The notes under the pieces were generated by a model, which was not told where the DNA came from, made no database searches, and was given only the letters and a program-made list of their open reading frames with translations. Source: an uncultured Gemmatimonadota bacterium (lineage in GTDB: Bacteria > JAAXHH01). From it: DNA of 64,000 nt. Below, piece by piece: positions 9,696 to 31,409 of the stretch. The stretch is taken from NCBI GenBank assembly GCA_951812955.1, contig OX638340.1:1792001-1856000 (forward strand). Direction: 5' to 3'. Numbering within the stretch: the stretch's first letter is position 1; the number at the start of each line of letters is the position of its first letter. The translations under genes were made by a program, and so were the position numbers.

Positions 9696-10667
9696 TCAAA
9701 GCAATCCAGCGCTACCGAGCCGTGTCCGCAGTCCTGCGATACCGTTCTCTACAAGTTCCGGTCTTCCTTCCTCCACCCCGTAGATAACCTCGTGACAGGA
9801 TGCCATCCAGGTGTAGGTCCGAAGCCTCCGCTCGTACTGTTCGTCCAAAGCTAGCCTGTAGCTGTCTCGAACCCTTTTAACGGCCTCCGTGCCATAAGTG
9901 ACATAGATACCGACGAAATCGATCGCGGGATCGCCGACCGTCGCGTCCTCGAAGTCAATCAGCCCATTCACAGTCACCCCGTCTTCATTCATCAGAATAT
10001 GCTCGCAACCCAGGTCGCAGTGCACCAGGGCGACATCCTTCAGTGTCGCGAGTTCGTAGTCGAGAAACCGGTCGAATCCGCGTTCTACCGCGTTGAGCGT
10101 GCTTTCTTCCGTGTCCCCGTCGGTGGATACAAGTAGTGGTAATACGTTGGTACGGACTTCTTCTCTCAGCGCGGAATAGCGTTGCCGCCACGTATCGACC
10201 GTGGGCTTCACGGCGCAGGCCTTGGCGACCAGCGATGTGGGTATGTCATGCAGCGAGGAAAGTGCCGCCCCTATGGACCCGGCTGTTTCCACGGATTGTT
10301 TATGACCGGGAGATGGTCGAGCAGACAGGGCCCGGCCGGGAATCCGCCGGTACCCCGCATAGGGCTGGCCGTTCCAACATCCTGCATGCTCGAAACGTGG
10401 TACGGCGAAGTCAACCCGGGAGGCAACAATGGGCAGTACCGCCCGCTCTTTTTGAAGGTTCTCAGCGACCACACTGTTCCTGGGAAAACGAAAGATCCAG
10501 CCGGGTTCGACAGCGGAGGACTCGACTTGCTCACCATGGTCATCCGGTTCGACTTCGAATGTCCAGTAAGACCAGCCTCCAGTGATGGGCTGGATTCGAC
10601 CCTGGTTTATGCTGAGATTGACGAGCAGATTTTCAACATCCCGGGTTGTCACAATAGGGTACTGCAA
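9696..10667 (-). CDS. Phosphotransferase enzyme family protein (APH/choline-kinase-like fold)
   Basis: Brenner motif LVHCDLGCEHILM and IDFEDATVGDPAIDF (metal-binding D). Confidence 0.6.
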   Translation of the reverse strand: MQYPIVTTRDVENLLVNLSINQGRIQPITGGWSYWTFEVEPDDHGEQVESSAVEPGWIFRFPRNSVVAENLQKERAVLPIVASRVDFAVPRFEHAGCWNGQPYAGYRRIPGRALSARPSPGHKQSVETAGSIGAALSSLHDIPTSLVAKACAVKPTVDTWRQRYSALREEVRTNVLPLLVSTDGDTEESTLNAVERGFDRFLDYELATLKDVALVHCDLGCEHILMNEDGVTVNGLIDFEDATVGDPAIDFVGIYVTYGTEAVKRVRDSYRLALDEQYERRLRTYTWMASCHEVIYGVEEGRPELVENGIAGLRTRLGSAGLL

Positions 10668-15625: not shown

Positions 15626-15778
15626 CCGTCTCGGTACCTCGTGCGAACCATATACGCATACGCTCTCGGCTCAAACCATTGCGGTCCGTCGCACTAGCCT
15701 ATACAGTTCGAAGCATGAGCCGTTGTAGTTCGTCGCGCAGTCCGTTACGCCTCCGAGCACGATTCCCCGCGCACGCCG

Positions 15779-16522
15779 TTATGGTTCGTCGCTCAAATAG
15801 TCATAAACAATCCGCGCATACCCCTCGGAATAGCTGCTCTCCATGTGGTAGGCATCGCCGTATTCCAGCGGCGTGAGCGGAGCGAGGTCGCACCGCGGGG
15901 AAGCGCCAAGGTCGATCGTACCCCGCCCCTTCGCGACGGAGTGGACTTCAACATCCTGGGCTGTTTCGCTGCAATCGATCAGCTGTTTGACGGCCGGCCC
16001 CGGACCGTCTGCCCTTGGAATAACCTTTAACCGCCAGGCCGGGGTAAGAGAAGGCATCGCTTCGCCCGGTGCATCCTTTTCCATGCTGGTATTTATACGC
16101 AATACGGGTTCACCACCATATGTGGTCTCCGTCACCATGCACCGGTCAACTTGCGTCACCTGCAACCCCGCGTACACTTTCGGCGTCCCGTAAATCTCCC
16201 TGCCCGCGGCGATACCGGCGGGGCCGTTATGAAAAACATGGGAACAGTAGAACCCGGTCTGATTCCTGAAGTGGCACTTCATAACGATAAAAGATTCCTG
16301 GAAGGGGCCGTAATTCTCGCAAATCGGTATATCCAATCCAGAGGCCACGCACAGCCCATCCTCCGCTGCTACCAATGGTTCCGGGAGAAAGCCCTGAACC
16401 GCGGCGGGCGCTGCGTGGAAGAACACGAATTGAAACCGGACGTTTCGATAGACCGCCGGCAGCGGTGGATAAAATGGGTTGTCAGGTGGAATGTTCCAGC
16501 CTTCGTCGTGTTTGAGTCCCAT
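15779..16522 (-). CDS. Acetoacetate decarboxylase (ADC) family protein
   Basis: ORF trimmed to the ATG at 16522. PFYPPLPAVYRNVRFQFVFF plus a C-terminal lysine region (VAKGRGTIDLG) resemble the ADC-like fold. Moderately tentative. Confidence 0.45.
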   Translation of the reverse strand: MGLKHDEGWNIPPDNPFYPPLPAVYRNVRFQFVFFHAAPAAVQGFLPEPLVAAEDGLCVASGLDIPICENYGPFQESFIVMKCHFRNQTGFYCSHVFHNGPAGIAAGREIYGTPKVYAGLQVTQVDRCMVTETTYGGEPVLRINTSMEKDAPGEAMPSLTPAWRLKVIPRADGPGPAVKQLIDCSETAQDVEVHSVAKGRGTIDLGASPRCDLAPLTPLEYGDAYHMESSYSEGYARIVYDYLSDEP

Positions 16523-16775
16523 AATTAGATCTCTTGATTTCGGGGCCTGTGATGTACGCCTTAGACCAACGACGCTCTCGAGGGCCACGATTGAGGTGCG
16601 TCACTAAACAATTTCTGCCCGTCTGCTTTGTGTTTCATGATGCCAATCGGACCATGCATCTTGTCATTAACTTAATTGCCTCCCATATTAGGTAAAGGCT
16701 GGAATCACCATTATTCATATCGTAGATCCCGAATAGGAGATGCGGAGCAGGTTCCCTGACCGCAGAGACGCAACC

Positions 16776-18248
16776 ATGGCCAATTCAACGCCCAACATCA
16801 TCTACATCCTCGCGGACGACATGGGATACGGCGACATGGGGTGCAACAACCCCGATTCGAAGATCCCGACGCCCAACCTGGACCTGCTCGCCGAGGAAGG
16901 CATGCGGTTCACCGACGCCCACGCCCCGTCGAGCGTGTGCACGCCTAGCCGCTACGCCCTGCTGACCGGCCGCTACGCCTGGCGCACGCCTTTGAAGAAC
17001 AGCGTCCTTTGGCCCTACGATCCACCCCTGATCGAGCCCGGCCGGCTCACCGCGGCGGAGATGCTTCGCGGGCAGGGATACCGTACCGCCTGTATCGGAA
17101 AGTGGCATCTGGGCTGGGAGTGGACCACTCTGGACGGAAAGCCGGCTCACGAAGGCACGGCGGTGGGCAGGCCGGACCGTGAACTGCGGGAGGAACGGGA
17201 ACGTCAGGTCGATTTCGGCAAGCCCATGCGCGGAGGGCCAGTCGATTGCGGTTTCGACACGTATTTCGGCGTGGACGTCCCGAATTTCCCGCCCTACACC
17301 TGGTTTGAACAGGACCGCCTCGCCGGGGAGCCGACCGTACCCAAGCCCGATGAGATGTTCGGTTGGCCCGGAATCATGAAACAGGGCTGGACGCTCGAGG
17401 AGATGATTCCTGCATTCGTTCGCCGCGTGGTCAACTACATCCAAACATCCGGTCCCGATCCATTCTTTCTCTACTTTCCGCTCACTTCGCCCCACACGCC
17501 CATCGTGCCCAATACGCCGTTTAAAGGCCGCAGCGGCTCAGGACTTTACGGCGACTTCGTGTGCGAAGTGGACTGGGTCGTGGGCCAGGTCATGGCCGCG
17601 CTGGAACGCAAGGGCATTGCCGACGACACCTTGCTGGTCTTCACGAGCGATAATGGCCCGGAGTGCGCCCCCGCTGCGGACGGCGGAAGCTACGAACATG
17701 CACGGATCCACGGCCACTACAGCATGGGGGACCTGCGCGGCGTCAAGCGCGATACCTGGGAAGGCGGGCACCGCGTCCCCTTCCTCGCCCGGTGGCCGGA
17801 CGCGACACCCGCCGGCACGGTCTGCGACCAGCTTACCATCCTGGGAGATTTCATGGCGACCTGCGCGGAGTTGACCGGCGTCGATCTGCAGGAGGACGAA
17901 GGCGAAGACAGCGTGAGCATGCTTCCGCTGCTTCAGGGGGAAACCGGCGCTCCGGTGCGGGACTTCGCCATTCACCACAGTTGCCACGGGAAATTCGCCA
18001 TACGAAAAGGAAGTTGGGTATTTCTCGATTCCCAAAATGGGGACGACAACCGCGAACCCGATTGGTTCAAGGAAGAACGAGGCTACACCGCCCACGAATT
18101 CCCCGGCGAACTCTACAACCTCGAGGACGACATCTCGGAGCGGGTAAACAGGTATGGCGACCATCCGGATCTTGTCCGGGAGATGTCGCAGATGCTGGAA
18201 CGGGTGAAGTCGGAAGACATCTCGGAGAGGCCGTCGCCCACGGTGTGA
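16776..18248 (+). CDS. Arylsulfatase (sulfatase family, formylglycine-dependent)
   Basis: Sulfatase signatures CTPSRYALLTGRY and GKWHLG. No signal peptide. The start is chosen at the internal ATG (MANSTPNIIYILADD); an alternative ATG lies at 16740. Confidence 0.75.
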   Translation: MANSTPNIIYILADDMGYGDMGCNNPDSKIPTPNLDLLAEEGMRFTDAHAPSSVCTPSRYALLTGRYAWRTPLKNSVLWPYDPPLIEPGRLTAAEMLRGQGYRTACIGKWHLGWEWTTLDGKPAHEGTAVGRPDRELREERERQVDFGKPMRGGPVDCGFDTYFGVDVPNFPPYTWFEQDRLAGEPTVPKPDEMFGWPGIMKQGWTLEEMIPAFVRRVVNYIQTSGPDPFFLYFPLTSPHTPIVPNTPFKGRSGSGLYGDFVCEVDWVVGQVMAALERKGIADDTLLVFTSDNGPECAPAADGGSYEHARIHGHYSMGDLRGVKRDTWEGGHRVPFLARWPDATPAGTVCDQLTILGDFMATCAELTGVDLQEDEGEDSVSMLPLLQGETGAPVRDFAIHHSCHGKFAIRKGSWVFLDSQNGDDNREPDWFKEERGYTAHEFPGELYNLEDDISERVNRYGDHPDLVREMSQMLERVKSEDISERPSPTV

Positions 18249-18309
18249 TTAGTGATTCTGCCCCGAATGGCTGTGCAACGTATGTCGTACTTCCGGACTG
18301 AGTCAATCA

Positions 18310-18738
18310 TTGAGTGATTCAGGATACCCCGAGCCCACCGCCGGCGCACTGATTCAGGATCCGGAGGGCAGGATCCTGCTGCTCAAGTCCCACAAGTTCA
18401 AAGACCGGTACACCATACCCGGTGGGCATATCGAACTCGGGGAGACTGCGGAGGAGGCACTGCGAAGAGAGATTCGGGAAGAAACCGGGCTCGAGATCTA
18501 TGACGTGGAGTTCCTGCTCTATCAGGATTTTGTTTTTGACGACTCCTTCTGGAAGAAAAAGCACTTTATATTCCTGGATTTCGCCTGCAGGACCGACTGT
18601 ACTGAAGTAGAGCTAAACGAAGAAGCGCAGGATTACATCTGGTCGACCCCGGAAGACGCCCTGACGCTTCCGATTGACCGGTACACGGCCAGGGCTATCG
18701 AGGCCCTGGTGGCCAGGCGGAGTTCGAACGGGAAATGA
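18310..18738 (+). CDS. NUDIX hydrolase
   Basis: Nudix box GGHIELGETAEEALRREIREETGLEI. Confidence 0.75.
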   Translation: MSDSGYPEPTAGALIQDPEGRILLLKSHKFKDRYTIPGGHIELGETAEEALRREIREETGLEIYDVEFLLYQDFVFDDSFWKKKHFIFLDFACRTDCTEVELNEEAQDYIWSTPEDALTLPIDRYTARAIEALVARRSSNGK

Positions 18739-19385
18739 TTCGCTGTGTCCTCTTTGATCTGGATGGTACGCTGATCGATACCTGGAACCTCTACGTCCGG
18801 ACCATGGAGCGCACCCTCGAAGAGATCGACCACAAGAAAATCCCCGTTGACCAACTTGCGACGCTGCGGCTGAACTCCGAGCCACGGCTGCTGGGTCATT
18901 TCGTTCCACAGGACGAGGTGGGTAGCGCTCATCAGCGGTTTCTGGCGAACTACCATGCCCTTCATGCGTCTTGCTTCGGCGGAGTCTACCCGGGTGTTCA
19001 CGCGCTGTTGACATCCCTTCGAAATCGCGGTATCAGGACGGGGATCGTCACCGGAAAAAGCCGGGGTGCCTGGGAGATCACCCGACAGCACGTCCGGTTG
19101 GGTGACTTCGATACCCTGGTTTTCGATGACGATGTCTCTTTGCCCAAACCGGATTGCGAGGGGATCGTAAAAGCGATGGCCGACCTGGACGTCCCGCCAT
19201 CGGTGACGGTATACGTTGGTGATTCCCTGGATGACCTGAAAGCCGCGGACCGAGCGGGAGTCGGTTTTATTGGTGCAGGATGGTCGAAGACCGCTACGGA
19301 TATCGAGGCTTTCGAGCAGGCCGCCGCCGAGATCGGTCCGTATAACGGTTTGGACCATCCCGGCGAGGTTGAGCGGTTTTTGTAG
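18735..19385 (+). CDS. HAD family hydrolase (phosphoglycolate-phosphatase-like)
   Basis: FDLDGTLIDT, VTGKSR and YVGDSLDDLKAA motifs. A 4-nt ATGA overlap with the NUDIX stop suggests translational coupling. Confidence 0.75.
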   Translation: MIRCVLFDLDGTLIDTWNLYVRTMERTLEEIDHKKIPVDQLATLRLNSEPRLLGHFVPQDEVGSAHQRFLANYHALHASCFGGVYPGVHALLTSLRNRGIRTGIVTGKSRGAWEITRQHVRLGDFDTLVFDDDVSLPKPDCEGIVKAMADLDVPPSVTVYVGDSLDDLKAADRAGVGFIGAGWSKTATDIEAFEQAAAEIGPYNGLDHPGEVERFL

Positions 19386-19463
19386 ATTCTGTTAAGCGGC
19401 GCCATGGCAGAGGAGATCATCGTAGGAGGCGACCGCGACGGATCAGACCTTGGTGGAGGACCC

Positions 19464-20303
19464 ATGCCGGACTATAACTACCATTTCCATCGCGATGATC
19501 TCAAGGCGGCCCTTGCGTGCCTGGATGAATACGGATTCTGCGTCATCCGGCAACTGATCGACCGGGAAATGGTCGCCGCGCTGAAGGAATCCATCGATCG
19601 GCAGCTGGACCCGGAAGGCGATCTGGCGCCGGCTTCCAACCGGTATCACATGGCCTTCGCCGAAGACAGCGAGCCTGTCTGGGACCTGGTCGAGAACCCG
19701 GATTACAAGCGGTTCATTCACACCGTGCACGGCACAACCGACCTTTGCCTGCATCGCTCCGCGGCCATACTGCGCACGCCGGGCGAGGGAATGGGCCGCT
19801 GGCACCAGGATCACCGGGGGCACATCGCCAGGCCGCAGCACGCCAACGACGTGCTGAACCGGTTTCCCATTCCGAGCGGCGCCTGGCTCTATCTCAATGG
19901 AAGCCATCCCGATCGCAGCGGCATCGCGGTCATCGAGAAATCCCACCATTTGGAGTGGGAAGGCCCCGAGGGTTACATCATGGGACCGAATCGCAGTGGT
20001 ATATATCCGGAGGGCGGTACCCCGGAAACTCCCTACGACGGCATGGCCGTGCCCGGGTGCGTCCCGGTCGTGGCAGATCCCGGGGACCTGATCTGCTTCG
20101 CCGCACTCACCTGGCACGCCAACATGGCCACTCGCGAACGGCGATACTCCTGCGGAATCGGGTTCCGCCCCAAGACCTGGCGCATTGACGCGCCCTGGCC
20201 ATTGCCCGATTCGGCCTTGGCCCTGGCTGAAAGACTCCCCGATCACCTCAAGCATTTTACCGAAGGTTACACGGGGTTTGACGGGGAGTGGAGGGCGGAG
20301 TGA
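19464..20303 (+). CDS. Phytanoyl-CoA dioxygenase (PhyH) family protein
   Basis: ORF trimmed to the ATG at 19464, with a GGTGGAGGA RBS. WHQDHRG...LNGSHPD...TWHAN. Confidence 0.7.
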   Translation: MPDYNYHFHRDDLKAALACLDEYGFCVIRQLIDREMVAALKESIDRQLDPEGDLAPASNRYHMAFAEDSEPVWDLVENPDYKRFIHTVHGTTDLCLHRSAAILRTPGEGMGRWHQDHRGHIARPQHANDVLNRFPIPSGAWLYLNGSHPDRSGIAVIEKSHHLEWEGPEGYIMGPNRSGIYPEGGTPETPYDGMAVPGCVPVVADPGDLICFAALTWHANMATRERRYSCGIGFRPKTWRIDAPWPLPDSALALAERLPDHLKHFTEGYTGFDGEWRAE

Positions 20304-20361
20304 CTCGGCGGAATGGCGTTATTACGTGTACACGCACAAACCAACCTGAGTAAGTCTACCG

Positions 20362-21057
20362 TTGATTTCAACTTTGTTCTTAGATGTCGGAGAGACCATT
20401 CTGGACGCCGAGGCGCAGCAAGACGCATTGACGGAAGTGCACAGAATGGTACTGAACGACTCTGGTTTTTCGTTGACGCAGGATGAATATAGACTGCTGT
20501 ACGAGGAGAAAATCCGGTCTTTCGTCCCCAGTGCAATGCACGCGATTACCTGGCACTTTGCTAGTCCGGACCATACCCTGCATAACGAGATCACCCGCGA
20601 GATTCGTGCGCACTATGGTGAAATCAGGAAAATAGGATGCCAACTCTATCCCGGAGTGGCCGAACTGCTTGAAAAGTTGGCGGATGGTTATTCGCTCGGA
20701 CTTGCCGCAAACGCTCCCGCTTCGGTCACGGACATCCTTGATGATTTAGGAGTGCTGTGCTGGTTCAGCCATACGGACGTATCCGGGAGTATCGGTATCA
20801 AGAAGCCGGACCATCGGTTCTTTGAAACCATCCTTACGCATGCAGACACGCGAGCGTCCGAAGCAATCATGATCGGCGACCGACTCGACAACGACATTAT
20901 ACCGGCCAGGCGTATCGGCATGAAGACGATCTGGGTACGATGGGGCCGCTATAGTATCTTGGAACCCCGCACTCCGGATGAAATCCCCGATAAGACCGTT
21001 ACCGACGTGCGGGAGGTACTGGACGCGGTAACCATGTTAAATTCGAGGTTATGGTAA
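20362..21057 (+). CDS. HAD-like hydrolase with atypical motif I (LDVGET)
   Basis: HAD motifs II-IV are recognisable (GLAANA...; GIKKPD; GDRLDNDI). Motif I reads FLDVGETIL, so the second Asp is replaced by Gly. The TTG start at 20362 is the first in-frame start after a stop. Confidence 0.5.
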   Translation: MISTLFLDVGETILDAEAQQDALTEVHRMVLNDSGFSLTQDEYRLLYEEKIRSFVPSAMHAITWHFASPDHTLHNEITREIRAHYGEIRKIGCQLYPGVAELLEKLADGYSLGLAANAPASVTDILDDLGVLCWFSHTDVSGSIGIKKPDHRFFETILTHADTRASEAIMIGDRLDNDIIPARRIGMKTIWVRWGRYSILEPRTPDEIPDKTVTDVREVLDAVTMLNSRLW

Positions 21058-21155
21058 CTATTCCGACATATAGAAATAGGAATTGAATTGATGTTTGGAA
21101 TCAGACAGTACAGTGGTTACTATAGATAAGGAAACTCTCGAAAGTTGGCGTATTT

Positions 21156-21356
21156 ATGAAGAAGACTGATACAGACAGATTCCGCCCTGAGTACTGCCGT
21201 GTAGATCTCGGTTCGGGCGTCCGGGGAAAGTACCTGAAGTCCTTCCAATCTGGAACTAACCTGGTATTGCTACATCCTGATGTAGCAAAGGCATTCCCCA
21301 CCGACGAGTCCGTAAACGCAGCTCTTCGTTCTTTAATGGACCAGGCGAAGGTATAG
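21156..21356 (+). CDS. Small RGKY-motif antitoxin-like protein (BrnA/COG3514-like), orphan
   Basis: 66 aa. EYCRVDLGSGVRGKYLKSFQSGTNLVLLHPDVAKAFPTDESVNAALRSLM resembles the widespread '...RGKY...TNVVxLDPDVAxxFPDSExVNxALRxL' antitoxin family. It lies in a low-GC patch, and no BrnT/RelE-like partner ORF is adjacent. Confidence 0.4.
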   Translation: MKKTDTDRFRPEYCRVDLGSGVRGKYLKSFQSGTNLVLLHPDVAKAFPTDESVNAALRSLMDQAKV

Positions 21357-21610
21357 GCAGACTCTAAAGAGTTTGTTGAAACCTCTAGCTGGTTGCGCTG
21401 TTCTTCCCCTCAACAACTCGCTTTGCTCTAACTGAACCCCGGTAATCGTCCTCTTGGGCTAGACCAGTACCGATTCTCCGGTCATAGACGCAGAATCCAC
21501 AGGTTCTTTCAGCGTGCGGTTCCTGTTGTTGCATATCTTGTTCAACGCGATATCTCGCGACTCGTGTTTAGGATACTGAAAGAACGAAAAGCGCAACGGA
21601 CTCTTAAGTA

Positions 21611-22333
21611 ATGAAAATCGCCATTTTGACTGATGTTCACGGAAACCTGCCGGCGCTAAAAGCAACTCTACGAGCCATCAGTCGAGAGGGTTGCGATGCA
21701 ATCTACCATACCGGAGACTGCATCGGAATTGGTCCGTATCCCGCGGAATGCCTGGATTTAATCCTGAACACACCACGTATGGTTCCGGTCATGGGCAATC
21801 ATGACGCCTGGTTCGCCTACGGCCTTCCCGATCCTCAACCCTCCTGGATGAGTGATGGCGAGGTGAGACATCAGCAATGGGTTCATTCCTGCCTCGATTC
21901 CTCGCTGCGAACCGTAGTCGGCGAATGGCCGTACCTGATACAGGAAGTATTCGAAGGCATCCGCGTGTCGTTCCTCCACTACGGCCTCAATGAATCAGGA
22001 CGGAACTTTGCGAAGTTCCACCAGGAACCCGAACCTGCCGATCTGGCTGAAATGTACGGTAGTCTGAATTCGGATTTGGTGTTTTACGGTCACCACCATT
22101 CAAATTCAGACATGGTGAGTAAAGCCAGGTATGTAAACCCGGGATCGCTGGGTTGTCATACCGAGGCAGTGGCGCGATTTGCAGTGCTTGTATGTCGAGC
22201 GTCGCGATATGAACTGGAAGTCCGCAGCATTTCATATGATGACAACGCTCTTTTTCGTGAATTCGAGAAACGCAAAGTTCCCGAGAGAGAGTTTTTAATC
22301 CGCGCCTTTTTCGGCGATAGATACCCGTTGTGA
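21611..22333 (+). CDS. Metallophosphoesterase (calcineurin-like)
   Basis: DVHGN, GDCIG, GNHD and GHHH motifs. Confidence 0.75.
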   Translation: MKIAILTDVHGNLPALKATLRAISREGCDAIYHTGDCIGIGPYPAECLDLILNTPRMVPVMGNHDAWFAYGLPDPQPSWMSDGEVRHQQWVHSCLDSSLRTVVGEWPYLIQEVFEGIRVSFLHYGLNESGRNFAKFHQEPEPADLAEMYGSLNSDLVFYGHHHSNSDMVSKARYVNPGSLGCHTEAVARFAVLVCRASRYELEVRSISYDDNALFREFEKRKVPEREFLIRAFFGDRYPL

Positions 22334-22341
22334 GATGACTG

Positions 22342-23145
22342 GTGAAAATCAGTGACCTACCAGATCCCGTACGCGCACGCCTGAGAGGCTACTCGTCCGA
22401 CGGCCAAAACCTCCGAACCGAATCCTGCTCGGACGTGAATCTCTACACGCACAGGTTGGGGCGGAGGCCAGGCCTTATCCTGAAGACGAGAGACGTCCGG
22501 GTAAGGCCACAGGAACCGGACCTGCTGGCGGAAACCGTGGCTCTGACCTGGTTGCGGGAAAAACTCCCCGTGCCTGAATGCCGGTGTTTTCACGTAGAAG
22601 GCGATAAGCAATACCTGCTCATGACGCTTATGGAAGGCGTCACGGGTATTCATCCGGAAGCACTCGAAGATCCAGCGCATCTCATTCGGGAATTCGCGGA
22701 AGGCCTGCAGGCAGTACATGCGCTGGATATCGCTTCCTCTCCCCTGGATTGGCGCATGTCGCGATTCATTCCCTGGGCGGAAGGGTTGATTGAAAGCGGC
22801 ACGTTGGACGAGGACATCCCTGAAGGAAAGACCCGAACCTTTCTTTTTGAAAAGTTATCTGATATAAAGGAGGCGGTGCCGGGGGAGGAAGATCTCGTCT
22901 TTACTCACGGCGATTACTGTCTGCCCAACGTCATGTTTCAGGATGGCGGGCTGAACGGCTACATCGACGTGGGTTACGCCGGGGTCGGCGACCGGTACCT
23001 GGATCTCGTGGCGGCCCGCGGAACGATCCATCGGAACCTGGGGGAAGAGTGGATCGAACCGTTCTTCCAGGCATATGGTCTCGAGGAACCTGACCCGGCA
23101 AAACTGCATGCGTATCAAAAAGTGCATGATTGGGGAGACTGGTAG
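22342..23145 (+). CDS. Aminoglycoside 3'-phosphotransferase APH(3') family protein
   Basis: The C-terminal half aligns closely with APH(3')-II (NPTII) as remembered: VFTHGDYCLPNVMFQDGGLNGYIDVGYAGVGDRYLDLVAARGTI...LGEEWIEPFFQAYGLEEPD versus [43 protein letters not shown]...LGGEWADRFLVLYGIAAPD. Confidence 0.8.
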   Translation: MKISDLPDPVRARLRGYSSDGQNLRTESCSDVNLYTHRLGRRPGLILKTRDVRVRPQEPDLLAETVALTWLREKLPVPECRCFHVEGDKQYLLMTLMEGVTGIHPEALEDPAHLIREFAEGLQAVHALDIASSPLDWRMSRFIPWAEGLIESGTLDEDIPEGKTRTFLFEKLSDIKEAVPGEEDLVFTHGDYCLPNVMFQDGGLNGYIDVGYAGVGDRYLDLVAARGTIHRNLGEEWIEPFFQAYGLEEPDPAKLHAYQKVHDWGDW

Positions 23146-23201
23146 CTTCGGCCGACTCGCTGATTGATTCACCAGTATCTGTAACCAACACGGAGTAGGG
23201 A

Positions 23202-24002
23202 TTGTACCGCAATCCACCCAGACTGTTGCAATATCAGGAAACATACGCAGCCCGCTTCAAGCAACGAAGCATGGCAGATTCGTATGAGCTCAGGCCTCCT
23301 TATCCGAATGAAACCTTCTCTATACTCCTGGGGTTGCTTGCGGAGCCGAAAGGTCGAGTACTTGACGTTGGGTGCGGTACCGGGAGAATAGCACGTTCAC
23401 TCGTCGATCACGTAGCGGGTGTGGACGCGGTCGACTTCTCCGGCGAGATGATCCGCGTGGGCAAATCGCTGGACAGGGGCGGCCACCCGAACCTGAACTG
23501 GCTCCATGGTCGAGTCGAAGAGGTTGAGCTGAAACCGGGTTACACTCTAGTGACCGCCGGAGCCAGCATCCATTGGATGGACTGGAACGTGGTTTTTCCG
23601 AGATTCGACGAGGTACTAAAGGCGGATGGATACGTCGCGATCATAGAAGGAGATCGTCCCTTTGATTCGCCGTGGGGTGAAGCAGAGCGCGAACTGATTC
23701 GACAGTATTCCACCAATCTACATTATCAGCAGATAGACCTGATCAAGGAACTTGTAGACCGAAACCACCTGCTTCCGGTTGGAGACCGGAGGACGGTGCC
23801 GGTCAACTTCTCCCAAACCGTGGCTGACTACGTTGAGTCCTTTCATTCGAGAGAGAGTATGTCCAGGGAACACATGGGTGACGGCAATGCGAAGGAATTC
23901 GACGCCGAGTTGTCCCGTATCCTGGCGGATTTCGCAGAAAATCAGGAGATGCTCCACTTCCAGTTGCAGACTAGAGTCGTCTGGGGCAGACCAATACCAT
24001 AG
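23202..24002 (+). CDS. Class I SAM-dependent methyltransferase
   Basis: Motif I VLDVGCGTGRIARSL. TTG start with a GGAG RBS; an alternative ATG lies at 23271. Confidence 0.65.
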   Translation: MYRNPPRLLQYQETYAARFKQRSMADSYELRPPYPNETFSILLGLLAEPKGRVLDVGCGTGRIARSLVDHVAGVDAVDFSGEMIRVGKSLDRGGHPNLNWLHGRVEEVELKPGYTLVTAGASIHWMDWNVVFPRFDEVLKADGYVAIIEGDRPFDSPWGEAERELIRQYSTNLHYQQIDLIKELVDRNHLLPVGDRRTVPVNFSQTVADYVESFHSRESMSREHMGDGNAKEFDAELSRILADFAENQEMLHFQLQTRVVWGRPIP

Positions 24003-24019
24003 AAAGATGAAAGACCCCC

Positions 24020-24853
24020 ATGAACATCCCCCACGCCGAAGTCGAGACCCTCCTTCGTGAGGCAGCCGATCAGATCGTCATGCCGCTGTGGAAAAACCTC
24101 GGCGAGGAGGATGTGACCGAGAAAAGTGAGGGTGATCTGGCGACGATCGCGGATACACGGTGCGAGGCGTTCCTGGCATCTCATCTGCCCGGGTTGATCG
24201 GCGGCTCGCTGGTGCTCGGAGAAGAGAGTGTCCACGAAGACCCGGGCCTGTTGTCCGCGCTGCATACGGATGCGCCTGTCTGGGTCATCGACCCCCTGGA
24301 TGGAACGCGATATTTCGCGGCAGGCCAATCGCAATTCGCCATCATGGTCTGCCTCATCCATTCGGGTGTGACCATCGGCGCATGGATTCTCAATCCGCTG
24401 GATGGCATCCTGACGAGCGCGGAGAGGGGGTGCGGAACCTACCAAGGAAGTAAGCGCCTGTCCGTGGATCCTTCTCGCCTTCCTCTGGAACGTGCTCGGG
24501 GCGTGGCGATGACGTGGTACCTCCCGGACTCCCTGAAGCCCACCGCCGATGCCGCGTCAGATACCTTTCTGTTCATCGAACGCACCCGGTGCGCCGGTTA
24601 TAATTATCCTTCGTTCGCGAAGAGCGAACTACATTTCCTTTTCTTCTATCGCACCCTGGTCTGGGATCATGCACCGGGCGTCCTGATCGCGCAGGAGGCG
24701 GGCGGCTTCGTTCGAAGACTTGACGGTACCGAATATTCACCGGCGGATGACCGCAAGGGCTACTGTGTGCTACGAACAGGGAAATGTGGGCGTTTATACA
24801 AAAGAGGCTGGTTCCGAGTATTTCGGTTGTCCGTTCAGATTAGTGCGTTGTGA
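24020..24853 (+). CDS. Inositol monophosphatase / CysQ family phosphatase
   Basis: WVIDPLDGT and LVLGEE metal-binding motifs. Confidence 0.7.
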   Translation: MNIPHAEVETLLREAADQIVMPLWKNLGEEDVTEKSEGDLATIADTRCEAFLASHLPGLIGGSLVLGEESVHEDPGLLSALHTDAPVWVIDPLDGTRYFAAGQSQFAIMVCLIHSGVTIGAWILNPLDGILTSAERGCGTYQGSKRLSVDPSRLPLERARGVAMTWYLPDSLKPTADAASDTFLFIERTRCAGYNYPSFAKSELHFLFFYRTLVWDHAPGVLIAQEAGGFVRRLDGTEYSPADDRKGYCVLRTGKCGRLYKRGWFRVFRLSVQISAL

Positions 24854-24969
24854 ACCAATATCCATGGGATTACGTGATGTTTTTGATTCCGGCGCGGGAG
24901 AACCGGCACAGGTGTCATAGGAACAGACCCTCGGTCTAGAATTGTCAGTCACGAATCGGGAGGCGCGGG

Positions 24970-25452
24970 ATGAACAACAGCGACACGTGCATAACATGCG
25001 AAATGACGGCGCGAAGAAGGCAGGGGCAGGCGCCGCTCTGGGATCACATCTATCAGACCGAGTTCTGGGACGTCGTGCATGCATACAACTCGGCTCTGCC
25101 CGGGTGGTTGGTGTTGGTGGTGCAGCGTCACATCGAATCGCTCGACGAACTTACTGAGCAGGAAGCCGCTGAATTGGGCCACCTGATTCGCCGTGTCTCG
25201 CTGTCAATGAAGAGCGTAATCGGATGTATGAAAACATACGTCATACAATTCTCCGAGGCCAGACAACACCCGCATGTGCATTTCCATATCGTACCACGAA
25301 TGGCTGATCAACCGCCCGAGCGGCGAAGTACTGGAATCATGGGCTATCGGGGGGTCTCTAGGGAGGAGCGAATCAGTGAAGGCCGAATGAATGAAATCGG
25401 TGCTGAGATCAGAAGCCATCTGTCTTCACAGAGCCATGAACTTCCATTCTAG
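24970..25452 (+). CDS. HIT (histidine triad) family protein
   Basis: HPHVHFHIVPR triad; 160 aa. Confidence 0.7.
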   Translation: MNNSDTCITCEMTARRRQGQAPLWDHIYQTEFWDVVHAYNSALPGWLVLVVQRHIESLDELTEQEAAELGHLIRRVSLSMKSVIGCMKTYVIQFSEARQHPHVHFHIVPRMADQPPERRSTGIMGYRGVSREERISEGRMNEIGAEIRSHLSSQSHELPF

Positions 25453-25824
25453 TTCTTCGAGATGTCACTCCAGCCTGACGTCGAAGCGCCCGATTCTCTG
25501 CGGTTCCGACTGCTGTGAGCCACCACTTCCGCGCTGCACGTTCATGCTCCAGACTGCCAGTTTCGTCATCGTTCACTTCCCTCAGCGTTAATCGGCGCAT
25601 CGAATTGACCCGGTGGGTTTCGCTGGGTACGCCCTAGCCGTCCTTGAGGCTGGCGACCAAAAGACCGAGGATCTTTCCCGGGACCGTGACTCGGCTACGA
25701 CCGGCCACGGAGCCGCGCCAACGCCCAACACGATGTCAATAATTCTTGACATGCAAGGTGATGTCTAGTAATTTTTACAACATGTCAACTATATTAGTCA
25801 TTTTATCAGAATTGGGAGACTCTC

Positions 25825-26244
25825 ATGGATATGTCCTTTGAAGAGAAGAGCGTCTGGATTCAACTCTTCAGTCTCGTCGTCGGCCTGGGCGGCTACCTGG
25901 TAGTCGCCGGCCTAATGCTGTCGAACGGAGTCAGTGCTTTGCCGCCCTTCGTGCCGGTCTTTGCCGTGGCGGTCGTCCTCATCGTGGCCGTCAATATCGC
26001 AGGACACGTCGTCGCGGCGATCACCAACCGGTCGGACGAGGCCGACGAGCGCGATCGGCTTATCGGCTGTCGCGCAGAGAGCGGGTCGTCGTGGATCCTG
26101 GGCGTCGGAGTCATTGGCGCGATCCTGTCGCTGATCCTGTCGGTCGGCGGCGTCTGGGTGGCGCACCTGCTCCTCATCTCGCTGTTCGGTTCCGAGGTGA
26201 CTAAGGATGTGTTGCAGATAGCCTACTACCGTCGGGGGATCTGA
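25825..26244 (+). CDS. Small integral membrane protein (DUF2975-like, 4 TM)
   Basis: Four hydrophobic helices. The gene pairs tightly (2-nt gap) with the downstream XRE regulator, as in the conserved DUF2975 + HTH cassette. Confidence 0.5.
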   Translation: MDMSFEEKSVWIQLFSLVVGLGGYLVVAGLMLSNGVSALPPFVPVFAVAVVLIVAVNIAGHVVAAITNRSDEADERDRLIGCRAESGSSWILGVGVIGAILSLILSVGGVWVAHLLLISLFGSEVTKDVLQIAYYRRGI

Positions 26245-26246
26245 AC

Positions 26247-26492
26247 GTGACTCAGTCGGGGATTAGCATCCGCAACCAGATCCGGACCCTGCGGTTCCAC
26301 CACGGCGAGATGACGCAGCAGAAACTCGCCGACCAGGTCGGCGTCACCCGGCAGACGGTAAACGCGATCGAGGGTGGCAAGTATTCGCCATCGCTCGAGG
26401 TCGCGTTTCGGATTGCCCACGTGTTCGGCAAGCCGCTCGAAGAAGTGTTTCAGTACGTCGCAGCGTCCCGGGTGACGGCGACAAACTCGTGA
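26247..26492 (+). CDS. XRE family HTH transcriptional regulator
   Basis: QQKLADQVGVTRQTVNAIEGGKYSPSLEVAFRIAHVF helix-turn-helix; 81 aa. Confidence 0.75.
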   Translation: MTQSGISIRNQIRTLRFHHGEMTQQKLADQVGVTRQTVNAIEGGKYSPSLEVAFRIAHVFGKPLEEVFQYVAASRVTATNS

Positions 26493-26641
26493 GGCCGCAG
26501 GGAGGGTACAGCGGACCTTTGTGCTGTCTGTCGATATAATCGAAACCATTTAGTCGTACCGGCTTCGGCCGATGGTGAAGCCAGACAGGATGCGCTGCCG
26601 CTTGCCGATTTAGAGTCAGGCTAAGCACTGGCGTGGTTTAC

Positions 26642-26668
26642 GCGGCCCCGCAACAACCACGGGGCCGC
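26642..26668. terminator. GC-rich hairpin (9-bp perfect stem GCGGCCCCG / CGGGGCCGC) between convergent genes
   Basis: The stem and its 9-nt loop (CAACAACCA) are read directly from the sequence. It lies between the XRE stop (26492) and the stop of the minus-strand gene at 26699. Confidence 0.45.
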
Positions 26669-26698
26669 GATGGACCTGTTCACGATCCGAGTCAATCC

Positions 26699-27475
26699 TT
26701 ACCTCGCAGTTTGGATCGTCCGGACCGTTCCTGTGAAAAGGGACGGCGGATCTAGCCGCCATACGCGGGACTCGTCCGCGACCTTTATCAGGTGGGTATA
26801 TGTTCCGTCCTCTGAATCCAATACCTCTTCAGACCGGTGAGCGGGATCGGGGGTTAGCCCAGGGTATTCTCCCATAGATTCGGACGGCGCTGAATGCCGG
26901 GTGGACGCATCATACACCAGCGTAAGGTTGAAGAACTCCGGTTTGCTTTCCGATTTACCGTCACTGGCGTAGATAACAGCCGGCAGTACGGGAACGGTAC
27001 CGGTGTTACCGTAGACGGATGCAAACTCGGACGGCGCTACGTTTCCGTGAGGCAGAATGAGGAATCGATTACCGTCCCGCGTAATCTGAAGCAGGGCTTC
27101 CTCGGGCGATCGAATGCCCAGCTTTCCGGGAATTGCTATGCCGAAACGGTAAGTTAGGAGGTCTTCCTCATAGTCTGTCGCCGGCTCTCCCTCAAATTCC
27201 AGGATAGCCCCGGGCCCTCCGGGGAACAGGACGACGCGGGAACGATCATCGAACGGACTGCTCACAACCGGAGGGTGGTTGGGGCCGTGATGCACCAGTT
27301 TAACCACTGATTTCGGGTTGAAATCGACCGGTACCGATTGCGCATGCTGCGCCGGTTCGGTCGACTGCTCAGGTGGTGTCGACTGCACTGGACTGGAGAA
27401 ACCGATCCAGACGATCACGAACGTCACCGCGAGTAACGGGGCAAAGAAGTAGTTAGTCAGGATAGACCGTGACAT
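26699..27475 (-). CDS. Secreted/membrane-anchored protein sharing a ~150-aa cadherin-like domain with the upstream large lipoprotein
   Basis: ORF trimmed to the ATG at 27475, with an AAGGAG RBS. The N-terminal hydrophobic segment is MSRSILTNYFFAPLLAVTFVIVW. The domain HHGPNHPPV...DLLTYRF...LPAVIYASDGKSES is paralogous to residues ~115-260 of 27513..29762. Confidence 0.55.
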   Translation of the reverse strand: MSRSILTNYFFAPLLAVTFVIVWIGFSSPVQSTPPEQSTEPAQHAQSVPVDFNPKSVVKLVHHGPNHPPVVSSPFDDRSRVVLFPGGPGAILEFEGEPATDYEEDLLTYRFGIAIPGKLGIRSPEEALLQITRDGNRFLILPHGNVAPSEFASVYGNTGTVPVLPAVIYASDGKSESKPEFFNLTLVYDASTRHSAPSESMGEYPGLTPDPAHRSEEVLDSEDGTYTHLIKVADESRVWRLDPPSLFTGTVRTIQTAR

Positions 27476-27512
27476 TGGTAGCTCCTTGTTGAATTGTGAG
27501 TGAGAATCGCCA

Positions 27513-29762
27513 TCACAAACATCCATCGATCCGGTGATCCAAATCATCCGGGAGTCCGTTCTGTTGCAGATCCGCTGCCATGCCGGTTGCAACGGCGTTG
27601 ATGGACCCCTCGGTCAACTGGATGTCACCGCCAGCAACTCCGACACCGTTTGTGTCAAGGTCGTGCAAGCGTACCCTGTACTGAAAGTAGAGCTTATTCG
27701 TACCCGTTCCGTGTGTGTACCGAGCTTCCTTCCGATCCGGGTAGTCCACCTCGAGCCACAAGTACAGTTCGGTTGATGCCATTACCTCGACCGGTTCACT
27801 GAATTCCACTTCAACCTCTATGGTTTCTCCCCTGTCATAGTAGACTTCGTGTAAGGGGGTGGAGGATATCCTCAGGCCTATGATATACGGGAACGTAGGC
27901 TGGTTCCTCAGAATCACCGTCGCGGAGGCCGGAGAATCGGCGGTTACGTTTGATGGGAGATCAGCAAACGTCAACCGGATGGATTCTCCCCTCCCTTCAC
28001 GCTCGTCTGATTCCGAAACCGATACGACCGTGAAGGTCTTTACGGATTCATGAGGCTGAAAGGTTATACCTGGTGGTACGCCGGAGTAGTCTTCGGGCCC
28101 GGCGCCGTTTTCCTCTGTGACGGAGACCGGGACGGTGACCGGCAGGTACAACGGTGGCGGATCCAAGCGCACCTCGATTTCCACGCGGTCTGCGTTTCCA
28201 TCAACGGCGGTGTACTGAGAAGTTCCAAAGTGCACGGTGTGCATGTACTTGCCCGTTTCAACGATCTCAGACCACTCACCGGGGCCCTCTCGATTGTTGC
28301 CGCGGACCTGTACCTCGTAAGCCGCTTCCGTTAGTCCCTCGACTGTTGCGGAATCATTCATCGGCAGGCCGGCTGTATTTTCCGTCCAGGCCGACGTACC
28401 GGCCTCACGGTAACGATAGTCGTAGCCGGTCACCTCGAATCCGGAAGGGAATGGCGCCAGCGTGTCGTTATCCATATAACCCTCTGGCTCTGTCCAGAAG
28501 ATTTTGAACACCGTGTCTCCCGTTTCAGGTGTCCCGTGATACGAAGCGTTTAAGATTCCAGGAGGCGCGGGTACGCCCACGTCCCTGACCCTTATGGCGA
28601 AGTCAAGCACCGATCCGTTGCACCCTGTCGGGTTTCCTTCATTCTCGATGTAATTGATGTTATGCGTGTTTACCGCGCGTAAGCGGTATATGTTGTCCCC
28701 ATCCTCGTCACCCGGCGCTTCGAAGTCCGGAGGCGAATTGAAGGACAATCGCACGGTTCCTGAAGTTGCCCCGGTCTCTGATGCAACGGCAAACAGGTTA
28801 TTGTCCTCGCCCCCTTCCTCGAAACTGTAAAAGCCTGTGAACGTCAGGATCTCGCATCGGATCGTACCAGGCGCGCGGACCAGCCTCCAGTCACGTTGCC
28901 CGGCCGTCACCCCTGTCCACGCGGGGAACGTCCCGCCGGCCGGCTCCGATGTCCCCTCGTACCAATCTATGGGTTCCGGGTACTCCCAGCGCTGATCGCC
29001 CACGTATTCTGCCGGTGCCGAGAACTGGGCTGAGCCGTCGTAGATTATGTCCAGGTTGTACACTTCCGGACTGCTTTCGGCGTTTCCGTCGCTGGCGTAA
29101 ACCGCGGCCGGTAGACCGGAGATGCTGGCGTGCGCACCGTATACCGCGCGGAACTCGGCCGGCGTGATGTCGCCATCCGGAAGGATTTCGAAGTTGTTGC
29201 CCGACCGGGTAATCCGCAACAGGGCCTCTTCCGGTGTCTGGAGGCCGGTCATGCCGAATAGCGCAAAAGCGACACGGTAGGTTAGCTCATCACCATCCGG
29301 GTCGCTCGCCGGTTCTCCCGAAAACTCAACCAGGGCCGCAGGCCCCCTGGGGAAGAGAAGGACCCGGGACTCGTTTGGAATGTGCGAATTCATCACCGGG
29401 GGATGGTTGGACCCGTGATGCCTGGGTTCGAGCGTGAATCGCGGATTGCTGGCGCCGGACGTAACTTCGCCACTCGCAAATCGTGCGGAACCGGCGGCTT
29501 CACCGCTAGCATCGGTAAGCACGCTTTGTACACGGGGATTTCGCGAGGCAAGATCAGGCTGATGCTCTGAAGTCACACCGATCGAATTACCAGCAGCAGT
29601 ATCAGCAGTAACTCTTTGAGTTGGCTGCGCAGGCGGTGTCGCCTTTGCCGACTGCGTTGGTTCCGTCGATCGCATCGGGTTGGAGGATTTCCCACAGGAA
29701 ACCGCGAGCGTGACTGCGAGCATCGTTACTAGTGCGAAGAAATATCTGGTAGGCCATAGCAT
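27513..29762 (-). CDS. Large surface lipoprotein with cadherin-like, FN3-like and Calx-beta-like domains
   Basis: 749 aa with a lipoprotein signal peptide (MLWPTRYFFALVTMLAVTLAVSC) followed by a Thr/Pro/Ala-rich linker. A DxDGDELTYRV cadherin-like motif and a Calx-beta-like segment (YTAVDGNADRVEIEV...EDYSG...TFQPHESVKTFTV) are present. A GGGAGCT RBS lies upstream. Confidence 0.6.
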   Translation of the reverse strand: MLWPTRYFFALVTMLAVTLAVSCGKSSNPMRSTEPTQSAKATPPAQPTQRVTADTAAGNSIGVTSEHQPDLASRNPRVQSVLTDASGEAAGSARFASGEVTSGASNPRFTLEPRHHGSNHPPVMNSHIPNESRVLLFPRGPAALVEFSGEPASDPDGDELTYRVAFALFGMTGLQTPEEALLRITRSGNNFEILPDGDITPAEFRAVYGAHASISGLPAAVYASDGNAESSPEVYNLDIIYDGSAQFSAPAEYVGDQRWEYPEPIDWYEGTSEPAGGTFPAWTGVTAGQRDWRLVRAPGTIRCEILTFTGFYSFEEGGEDNNLFAVASETGATSGTVRLSFNSPPDFEAPGDEDGDNIYRLRAVNTHNINYIENEGNPTGCNGSVLDFAIRVRDVGVPAPPGILNASYHGTPETGDTVFKIFWTEPEGYMDNDTLAPFPSGFEVTGYDYRYREAGTSAWTENTAGLPMNDSATVEGLTEAAYEVQVRGNNREGPGEWSEIVETGKYMHTVHFGTSQYTAVDGNADRVEIEVRLDPPPLYLPVTVPVSVTEENGAGPEDYSGVPPGITFQPHESVKTFTVVSVSESDEREGRGESIRLTFADLPSNVTADSPASATVILRNQPTFPYIIGLRISSTPLHEVYYDRGETIEVEVEFSEPVEVMASTELYLWLEVDYPDRKEARYTHGTGTNKLYFQYRVRLHDLDTNGVGVAGGDIQLTEGSINAVATGMAADLQQNGLPDDLDHRIDGCL

Positions 29763-30185
29763 AGGTAGCTCCCAAGTTGCTGAGTGAGGGAATTGGGAAG
29801 GAACTACGACTATGAAGGCCGGGAGGGGATCTTGACTGCCAACGTCGGGGAATTAGATCAGATGAAGCGATTTTGCCATGGGAGTCGTTTGTGGTATGTA
29901 TGAATTCAGGTAGGTATGGGAGTATCAGTGCGGTGCCGGGCAGTGAATTGAGGTGATGTCCACAAATTCGGATCAACCTGTCCAGCGACAGTTTGCCCTG
30001 CATGAACGAGAAGCATTTGCCCACCCAGTTACCGACCATGGCCTTTACCTCGCGGACGTGTCGTGACTGACGGCGTCTCTACCCCGTTTAACTAACGTGG
30101 TCGGTCGCGAGTTCCCATGAAACTGTTACATTTGTAAAAGAAACAGTTAACAATTGCAGACCGGGTCGGTAAAATCTGCTGCAAA

Positions 30186-31409
30186 TCAGGAATTTGAAAC
30201 ATTGGGCGGCCGCAACCCGACATATTTGGCCCGCGGCCGAATCAACTGGTCCCTTTCGTACTGCTCGATCGCGTGTCCGATCCAGCCGGCGGTGCGGCCC
30301 AGGGCGAACAGGGCCATGGCGCTTCCTTCGGGCATCTTAAGGACGCGAACCAGCGCCGTAAGGGCCAGGTCGATGTTGTACCTGTCCGGAATGAGCCGGT
30401 GGGTCGTATCGATGATTTCACGGGCAAGCTGCAGATCCTTCGAACCCGGAAATCGATCTTCCAGCTTGTGCAACAGCAGGCTCGCTCTCGGGTCCTCGCC
30501 GCGGTAAACGGCGTGCCCGAACCCTGGAATCTTCTCGCCAAGCCGCAGCCGGTGGGCGATCGCCAGTTCAGTGCTACCGGCCGATTCCACCTCTTGGAAC
30601 AGCGATTCGACGCGCTCGCTGGCCGCGCCGTGCTTATAGCCGCGCAGTGCGGCGAGTCCCGCGCAGACCGCGCTATAGGGCGTCGTACCTGCCGACGCGG
30701 CGCATCGCACCGTGAAGGTCGATACATTCAACTCGTGATCCGCGAACAGTACCAGCGTCGTATTGATCAACTCCGCCGCGCCATCTATATCCGCGGCCCA
30801 GGCCCTTCGCAAGGCCTGGGCGATCCCGCCCATCGGGTCTACGCCCGTGGCCACCCCCGTCATGAACCAGAGAATCCGCATGCCCGTAGCGGCGACCGCG
30901 TCCCTTCGCAGGTCCAGTGCGGCCAGGTCATCCGCCTCCGCAAGGGGCAGCAATGTTTGAAAGCGTTCGACGGGCTTCAGCGACTTCATTTTCAACCAGG
31001 ATTCCCGAAAATCTCTCTGGTAGGTATTTGAGAAAATCGGAAAGGAGAATCGTTTGTCTCCCGTCCAGATCAGTGCAGCGACGCGCTCAAACGATTCTTT
31101 CGCCGCAAGTATCGTCGCGTCGCGCCCTCTGTAAAACAACCTTTCGTCGGTGATCAGGGTAATGGCCGATTCAAGGATGGGATCTCCTGTATGCAAGGCG
31201 CGCTTGACCGCCCAGCCCGGATTCTGGCGGGCTTTCTTACGGGCCTTCAACCGCTCGATATCTTCACTGCGGTACAAACGCGTCCGCCGGCCGTCTCCGC
31301 TTTCTTCGGATCGGATCATGCCCCGGCTGACGTACGCATATAGTGTCGACGGATTGATGTTCAGTACGGAAGCCGCCTCGGTGGATGTCATGTATCTTCG
31401 GCTGTTCAT
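30186..31409 (-). CDS. Excisionase-type HTH domain fused to a citrate synthase-like domain (putative enzyme-derived regulator or divergent citrate synthase)
   Basis: The N-terminus MTSTEAASVLNINPSTLYAYVSRGMIRSEE...RLYRSEDIERL resembles HTH_17/Xis-like. The rest carries a citrate synthase fold with GFGHAVYRGEDPRA and the HELNVSTFTVR motif. Confidence 0.7.
   Translation of the reverse strand: MNSRRYMTSTEAASVLNINPSTLYAYVSRGMIRSEESGDGRRTRLYRSEDIERLKARKKARQNPGWAVKRALHTGDPILESAITLITDERLFYRGRDATILAAKESFERVAALIWTGDKRFSFPIFSNTYQRDFRESWLKMKSLKPVERFQTLLPLAEADDLAALDLRRDAVAATGMRILWFMTGVATGVDPMGGIAQALRRAWAADIDGAAELINTTLVLFADHELNVSTFTVRCAASAGTTPYSAVCAGLAALRGYKHGAASERVESLFQEVESAGSTELAIAHRLRLGEKIPGFGHAVYRGEDPRASLLLHKLEDRFPGSKDLQLAREIIDTTHRLIPDRYNIDLALTALVRVLKMPEGSAMALFALGRTAGWIGHAIEQYERDQLIRPRAKYVGLRPPNVSNS

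Follow-up and report, generated by a model that had tools for sequence, protein, structure and literature searches.

The window analysed in this work is a 64,000-nucleotide stretch of DNA from an uncultured Gemmatimonadota bacterium (assembly GCA_951812955.1, contig OX638340.1, positions 1,792,001 to 1,856,000 of the forward strand). At positions 22342..23145 of its plus strand (stop codon included) it carries a gene for a small-molecule kinase of 267 amino acids that resembles aminoglycoside 3'-phosphotransferases, or APH(3') enzymes. The open reading frame (ORF) starts with GTG; relatives begin at the same GTG, and the N-terminus is likewise identical. A look-up of the exact protein returned no record. 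Where the gene is intact, comparison with relatives gave ratios of non-synonymous to synonymous substitutions (dN/dS) of 0.20-0.36, which indicates purifying selection.

The original prediction, made from the DNA letters only, had called the product a clear homologue of the kanamycin/neomycin phosphotransferases. The homology was confirmed by several approaches. The protein matched Pfam family PF01636 (APH) over residues 53-257 with 101.8 bits (E=6.3e-29), far above the gathering threshold of 23.2 bits, and the NCBIfam entry APH_3p with E=3.5e-53. The top sequence match in the PDB was APH(3')-IIa (1ND4; E=5.2e-30), followed by APH(3')-IIb, -IIIa, -Ia and -VIII. An AlphaFold2 model built from a 41-sequence alignment of the query clade reached a mean pLDDT of 84.8 and a pTM of 0.82. 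When this model was compared with the PDB by Foldseek, the first 46 matches were all APH(3') or APH(3'') structures, with 1ND4 in first place (TM-scores 0.79/0.82). Given the Pfam, PDB and Foldseek matches, the ORF is real and its homology to APH(3') is well above chance level; these enzymes are the closest known family both by sequence and by predicted fold. The word 'clear' was an overstatement, as the curated score, the C-terminal motif and the phylogeny described below place the protein apart from the typical enzymes.

Catalytic residues were located by translation and alignment to reference enzymes. Lys48 (22483-22485) and Glu64 (22531-22533), encoded within 22483..22533 on the plus strand, correspond to the ATP-positioning pair K44/E60 of APH(3')-IIIa, and both are conserved in at least 90% of the 41-sequence clade alignment. 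The catalytic loop HGDYCLPN (residues 189-196; 22906..22929, plus strand) is invariant in that alignment. It contains the Brenner motif H-x-D-x4-N, the role of which has been described (PMC3691515), with Asp191 as the catalytic residue and Asn196. Asp209, located in YIDVGY (22966..22968, plus strand), aligns with the metal-binding D208 of APH(3')-IIa and -IIIa. The APH(3') catalytic machinery, i.e., the Lys-Glu pair, the Brenner motif and the metal-binding Asp, is thus present and invariant or nearly so throughout the clade, and the HGD and metal-binding D picked out in the original prediction are both where they were said to be. Judging from motif conservation, Lys48 and Glu64 would position the ATP phosphates, Asn196 and Asp209 would hold metal ions, and Asp191 would be the base that activates the substrate hydroxyl for attack on the gamma-phosphate.

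Membership in the APH(3') family proper was assessed with the NCBIfam equivalog model NF033068, which has a curated cutoff of 205 bits. The kinase scored 180.7 bits and remained below it. Four further clade members (P0005, P0027, P0042 and P0052) reached 187.6-198.7 bits, of which two with 73-79% identity to the kinase scored 188-190 bits and two with 57-58% identity 191-199 bits. As the tested clade members all fell below 205 bits, the low score is a property of the lineage. P0084, an outlier match outside the clade (36% identity), was also under the cutoff (200.7 bits), and proteins with the canonical ending LLDEFF scored 303-321 bits. None of the APH(3') subtype cutoffs was reached; for APH(3')-II (NF032898) the score was 151.6 versus 360 bits. 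The nearest named relatives are environmental APH(3') proteins of Bacillota and Chloroflexota, such as P0093 (Alkalicoccobacillus) and P0106 (Paenibacillus), with 39-42% identity over 73-96% of the query. In contrast to the query clade (181-199 bits), these pass NF033068 with 315-321 bits and end in LLDEFF or MDEFF.

In a neighbour-joining tree of 114 sequences (100 bootstraps), the 65 sequences of the query lineage were monophyletic in 100 of 100 replicates. Mean identity was 63% within this clade and 33% to proteins ending in LLDE[FL]F. The original prediction had named placement outside the APH(3') clade as an observation that would speak against it, and the phylogenetic part of that argument applies here; the kinase may be the repurposed small-molecule kinase that it gave as its alternative.

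The sequence of NPTII, i.e., APH(3')-IIa, used as reference was verified from an annotated copy on plasmid pZE21. Overall identity of the kinase was 32% to NPTII, 28% to APH(3')-IIIa and 27% to APH(3')-Ia. Residues 183-247 align with NPTII without gaps at 51% identity, which accounts for the earlier impression that the C-terminal half matches NPTII almost residue by residue. That impression does not extend to the final 20 residues, which are only 17% identical and include a two-residue insertion. The divergent tail, KVHDWGDW followed by the stop codon (23119..23145, plus strand), replaces the canonical ...LLDE[FL]F end according to translation and alignments: Asp261 is changed to His, Glu262 to Asp, and two residues are added at the end. 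Since the residue aligned with F264 is followed by further ones, the carboxylate at the C-terminus is shifted by two positions. In the 114-row alignment an LDEFF, LDELF or MDEFF ending was present in 33 proteins, three of them typed reference enzymes; the APH(3') C-terminal motif ...LDE[FL]F-COOH, which touches the aminoglycoside through Glu262 and the carboxylate of Phe264, was absent from the kinase. The query clade ends in KVHD[WF]xx, with KVHDFI[DE] in the loci from Latescibacterota and Poribacteria (termed tier B here; tier A denotes the close relatives). Even among close relatives the last four residues differ (WGDW, LGFW, LGCW, SVFW).

Changes were also found at other positions. NPTII residues R211, R226, D227, E230 and D261 align with Y, G, T, R and H in the kinase, and R211, R226, E230, D261, E262 and F264 of APH(3')-IIIa with Y, G, R, H, D and G. 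The equivalents of Arg211 and Arg226, Y212 and G227 in the query, are Y/F and G/Y/W clade-wide; the two arginines are conserved in types IIa and IIIa, and Arg211 is also found in Ia. According to a review from the Berghuis laboratory (PMC3691515), drug binding involves Glu157 and Glu160 in the flexible loop, and the contacts made by Glu262 and Phe264 of the C-terminal helix are critical. The C-terminal aminoglycoside-binding region, which the original prediction had included among the shared features, is not retained.

The whole protein is very acidic (isoelectric point 4.86, net charge -18), as are true APH(3') enzymes. Its loop 146-170 carries a net charge of -5; in the references the loop is 1-3 residues longer. 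By charge counts, a crude proxy for pocket comparison, the difference between the query clade and true APH(3') enzymes sits mainly in the C-terminal tail. Relative to kanamycin/neomycin kinases the acceptor pocket would be remodelled through the replacements of Arg211 by Tyr, Arg226 by Gly and Asp261 by His and through displacement of the LLDE[FL]F carboxylate, and acceptor specificity would differ. The strongly acidic protein and its acidic, putative substrate loop argue for an acceptor that is probably still cationic and amine-bearing. The physiological acceptor is thus probably a cationic amine-bearing compound, though we infer that it need not be a classical 2-deoxystreptamine aminoglycoside; the kinase would phosphorylate a hydroxyl group on such a small molecule, with ATP donating its gamma-phosphate.

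Three characterised enzymes serve to illustrate these relationships. APH(3')-IIa (NPTII, Tn5; 1ND4) shares with the kinase the bilobal kinase fold, residues K50, HGD188-190, N195 and D208 (IIa numbering), and a similar length and acidic isoelectric point. It differs in being transposon- or plasmid-borne, whereas the kinase is chromosomal in metagenome-assembled genomes (MAGs) of uncultured bacteria, and in ending with LLDEFF instead of HDWGDW with its two extra residues. APH(3')-IIIa of Enterococcus and Staphylococcus (1J7L, 1L8T) has in common the fold, the K44/E60 pair, D190, N195 and D208 as well as an apparently equivalent acidic flexible loop (between helices alphaA and alphaB in APH(3') enzymes), but the loop of the kinase is about three residues shorter and identity is only 28%. 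APH(3')-IIb of Pseudomonas aeruginosa (9QOS/9QOY) is likewise a chromosomal APH(3')-type kinase in a non-producer; it was the second-best PDB sequence match (E=3.5e-28; TM-scores 0.75-0.82), and structural alignment put identity at about 29-30%. In pocket and tail, IIb would be expected to differ from the kinase as IIa does.

Members of the clade with at least 51% identity to the kinase were found in MAGs labelled Gemmatimonadota/Gemmatimonadetes, Candidatus Latescibacterota and Candidatus Poribacteria, several of which are complete chromosomes of 3-6.5 Mb. Contig and isolate names (sample tags KARI17, ENGE20, ROBB21 and PANK22; IRC1_bin, SB0665_bin, Plut_) point to sponge and coral metagenomes as the probable origin of the carriers, and these three lineages have been named among those typically associated with sponges (PMC8163846). 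Among the 80 best loci from a pattern scan covering 241 million general metagenome records, one (L093, 78% identity) belonged to the clade and all others were at most 42% identical, which suggests a strong habitat restriction. A search of the literature library yielded no paper that ties the clade to sponges or to any function, and searching by accession likewise gave nothing. Public annotation already names the clade members P0027, P0033 and P0052 'aminoglycoside 3'-phosphotransferase'; relatives are thus in public databases under that generic name, and the kinase is an unremarkable addition to a known kind.

Taken together, the gene is intact, under selection and chromosomal, encodes an APH(3')-like kinase with a complete catalytic apparatus, and belongs to a clade without the canonical tail motif and two conserved arginines. 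The protein is APH(3')-like in fold and chemistry but falls short of the curated score and has no C-terminal drug-binding motif, two defining attributes for which it was tested. The reading we prefer, with a probability of roughly 0.6, is that the product is a functional O-phosphotransferase for small molecules, dependent on ATP and Mg2+ and built on the APH/eukaryotic-protein-kinase-like fold. Its clade would be a sister to the APH(3') resistance enzymes, distinct from them and uncharacterised. The gene would be an accessory one, inherited vertically and dispensable, that lies in a variable part of the chromosome in a Gemmatimonadota-annotated lineage.

Several points weigh against this reading: (i) the kinase is just 24 bits short of the NF033068 cutoff, which some proteins that lack an LLDEFF tail (P0073, P0077) exceed; (ii) functional APH(3') subtypes are only about 25-35% identical to one another, so that low identity alone does not exclude activity on kanamycin or neomycin; (iii) two MAFFT runs aligned the flexible loop differently, which leaves its alignment ambiguous, and the pocket comparison consists of sequence alignment and charge counts; (iv) gene context is uninformative, as the tier-B loci have no neighbour in common, either with the window or among themselves; and (v) no acceptor substrate of the kinase emerged from the analysis.

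The strongest competing explanation, which we consider possible though doubtful, is that the gene encodes a genuine APH(3'), i.e., an intrinsic resistome gene whose product phosphorylates the 3'-OH of kanamycin/neomycin-class drugs and raises minimal inhibitory concentrations when expressed. The family, structure and fold matches, the intact catalytic core, the acidic protein with its acidic loop and the Asp retained at the position of Glu262 would all fit such an enzyme, as does the name given to P0027, P0033 and P0052 by annotation pipelines. However, the query and the four tested clade members score below the equivalog cutoff, the near-universal LLDE[FL]F end with its Glu262/Phe264 contacts (PMC3691515) is missing, and the equivalents of Arg211, Arg226 and Asp261 are replaced clade-wide. 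Variation of the last four residues among close relatives is unexpected for a precise drug-binding element, and neither aminoglycoside biosynthesis genes nor further resistance genes are located nearby.

Beyond the preferred reading of a divergent O-phosphotransferase, a more specific proposal is tentative. The clade may represent a holobiont-specific kinase shared horizontally by the sponge and coral symbiont phyla Gemmatimonadota, Latescibacterota and Poribacteria, which phosphorylates a host or community metabolite or an unconventional cationic antibiotic made in sponges, and not classical aminoglycosides; it might act together with a co-distributed methyltransferase (see below). If true, the clade would stand for a new substrate specificity that branched off inside the APH(3') radiation, and its role in detoxification or signalling would be niche-specific. 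More generally, if the substrate is not a classical aminoglycoside, the clade would be an example of the APH(3') scaffold being retuned, and would add a niche-specific function common to three symbiont phyla. The apparent restriction of the clade to host-associated symbiont phyla is a modest lead. For resistome surveys the case calls for caution: the protein looks NPTII-like by eye and its relatives bear the generic name, yet it falls short of the curated antimicrobial resistance model and is devoid of the drug-binding C-terminus. Resistome estimates for marine host-associated metagenomes would be inflated if genes of this type were scored as kanamycin resistance.

The kinase gene is part of an array of genes on the plus strand, assigned by Pfam except for one small ORF. 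Upstream are two HAD genes (18735..19385 and 20362..21057) flanking a gene for a PhyH dioxygenase (19404..20303), the small ORF (21156..21356; see below), and the metallophosphoesterase gene noticed earlier (21611..22333; Metallophos_2, Metallophos), which ends 8 bp before the kinase gene. Downstream are genes for a class-I S-adenosylmethionine-dependent methyltransferase (23202..24002), an inositol-monophosphatase-family protein (IMPase; 24020..24853; Inositol_P, E=2e-35) and a HIT protein (24970..25452). The gaps on either side of the methyltransferase gene are 56 bp (kinase) and 17 bp (IMPase). Synteny with relatives whose APH is 69-92% identical spans about 15 kb, with the backbone Amdase-ADC-sulfatase-HAD-PhyH ... 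APH ... IMPase ... MerR-citrate synthase. Of the downstream neighbours, the IMPase gene is the one kept most consistently in close relatives; its product scores far under the HisN and CysQ cutoffs, and the neighbours in general gave only sub-threshold matches to specific NCBIfam models.

Other neighbours are less stable. The metallophosphoesterase gene adjoins APH in L001, L007, L010, L088 and L173-L175/L177, i.e., in one sub-lineage only; it is missing in L002, L008, L009, L011, L012 and L021, and in about half of the loci there is a HAD gene or nothing instead. No methyltransferase gene is present in L008-L012, nor in L088, the closest relative (92%), whose APH and IMPase genes are directly adjacent; relative to L088 the gene is an insertion in the window. 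The HIT gene was found in some loci only. Clustering of the ORFs within about ±5 kb of APH in 11 tier-B loci revealed no neighbour in common. An exception to the lack of shared context is L092, in which a methyltransferase orthologue (63% identity, 2047-2850) lies directly upstream of a tier-B APH. The methyltransferase family has more than 1000 homologues and shows the same two-tier Gemmatimonadota-Poribacteria pattern as the APH clade. We take the loose, recurrent link between the methyltransferase and kinase genes as a weak lead and not as an operon.

A dedicated metabolic module, in which the kinase, the methyltransferase and the flanking phosphatases (metallophosphoesterase, IMPase-family, HAD, HIT) act on a host- or symbiont-derived metabolite, is improbable. 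It would account for the same-strand array with its short gaps (8, 56 and 17 bp), for the order HAD-PhyH ... APH-IMPase kept in close relatives, for the orthologous methyltransferase gene adjoining APH in two orientations in two lineages, and for the shared distribution of the two families. Nevertheless, the methyltransferase and metallophosphoesterase genes come and go among close relatives, tier-B loci have none of the neighbours in common, recent common ancestry alone can account for the conservation in tier A, and the methyltransferase family has far more members than the APH clade.

The combination of PhyH, IMPase-like, methyltransferase and APH genes also prompted the consideration of an aminoglycoside-type biosynthetic cluster. 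This was rejected as no genes for sugar or aminocyclitol biosynthesis are present and the neighbours are generic hydrolases, far under specific NCBIfam cutoffs and variable in close relatives. As a separate observation, the density of phosphatase-type enzymes around a single kinase is unusual in 18735..25452 and in the syntenic loci (L001, L002, L007, L088); the PhyH-to-IMPase segment is a hotspot in which small hydrolase genes (HAD, NUDIX, metallophosphoesterase, HIT) were gained or lost among close relatives.

The possibility that the gene resides on a mobile element was also examined. No tRNA was found, and no integrase or transposase family among the genes annotated in 14900-31409, whose Pfam assignments were metabolic, regulatory or absent. 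Repeats were at chance level (16-29 nt, imperfect), and promoter and terminator matches were no better than in shuffled sequence. The kinase gene has a GC content of 56.8%, compared with 56.9% for the window, for which the earlier description as a high-GC genome was generous. The best plasmid match to the kinase was 35% identical, with 31.5% for plasmids carrying aph(3')-IIa. A mobile-element origin was rejected on the basis of the missing tRNA, the chance-level repeats, the window-average GC content, the absence of plasmid copies above 35% identity and the synteny with the chromosomes of relatives; the mobile flanks that the original prediction had considered are not in evidence. The hallmarks of an acquired or mobile resistance gene being absent, we regard the chromosomal kinase gene, as part of the preferred reading, as probably not a mobilised resistance determinant. 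Since there is no evidence of mobility, it is of no direct clinical concern.

The segment just upstream of the kinase gene contains the lower-GC patch and the orphan antitoxin-like gene that had been noted before, and both were recovered. GC content in a sliding-window profile drops to 47-50%, with 35% and 48% in intergenic stretches; the small ORF has non-coding flanks at 21058-21155 (35% GC) and 21357-21610. A search of the whole window against Rfam gave no match, and the idea of a riboswitch or RNA regulator in the patch was rejected. The small ORF (21156..21356, plus strand) encodes a BrnA-type antitoxin of 66 amino acids that belongs to no Pfam or NCBIfam family; it was recognised by the BrnT partner of its homologues. 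More than 2200 homologues with 68-93% identity occur in many phyla, and elsewhere an overlapping BrnT_toxin gene (PF04365) is located just before them, which indicates that the 66-amino-acid proteins form an undescribed BrnA-type antitoxin family. No BrnT-like sequence was detected in 20000-23500 of the window, even at E values up to 10, and the locus thus lacks a BrnT/BrnA pair. Close relatives retain a truncated BrnT. The antitoxin gene is 91-95% conserved with relatives compared to 75-88% for its neighbours. The orphaned antitoxin suggests that the segment just upstream of the kinase gene was historically variable.

In one relative (L176; 3.85 Mb circular contig ERZ25069711:ctg17301_75x_c, 2456-3042), a deletion joins residues 1-108 of the metallophosphoesterase to residues 176-267 of APH and inactivates both genes, which implies that the kinase is dispensable. 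This deletion and the variable segment with its orphaned antitoxin could indicate a decaying remnant, i.e., a pseudo-kinase or a gene being lost, but this is very unlikely in view of the full-length frame with all catalytic residues invariant, the dN/dS values of 0.20-0.36 and the conservation of the gene over three phylum-level lineages. On a contig with an ankyrin-repeat protein (L178, 1742-3910), an intact BrnT/BrnA pair was observed next to a NUDIX gene and an Aminoglyc_resit gene (PF10706, ANT(2'')-like). Small islands marked by toxin-antitoxin genes and containing enzymes of the antibiotic-modifying type may recur in these communities.

Three further genes of the window, all on the minus strand, deserve mention. 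The second kinase-fold phosphotransferase listed in the original prediction is encoded at 9696..10667 (323 amino acids; Pfam APH, E=2e-27). With 25 bits against APH_3p it is not related to the kinase discussed above; what it resembles best, though weakly, are capreomycin phosphotransferase, APH(2'') and the macrolide phosphotransferases, with every score far under the respective cutoff. A 749-amino-acid protein (27513..29762) gave weak sub-threshold Pfam matches to fibronectin type III and Calx-beta and fits the eukaryote-like protein repertoire reported in sponge symbionts (PMC8163846). Domain matches further identified a protein in which an N-terminal MerR-type helix-turn-helix domain is fused to a full citrate-synthase domain (30186..31409). 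It is 75-92% conserved in all close relatives, and in L001 and L002 its gene adjoins an isocitrate/isopropylmalate dehydrogenase-family gene and a second citrate-synthase gene.

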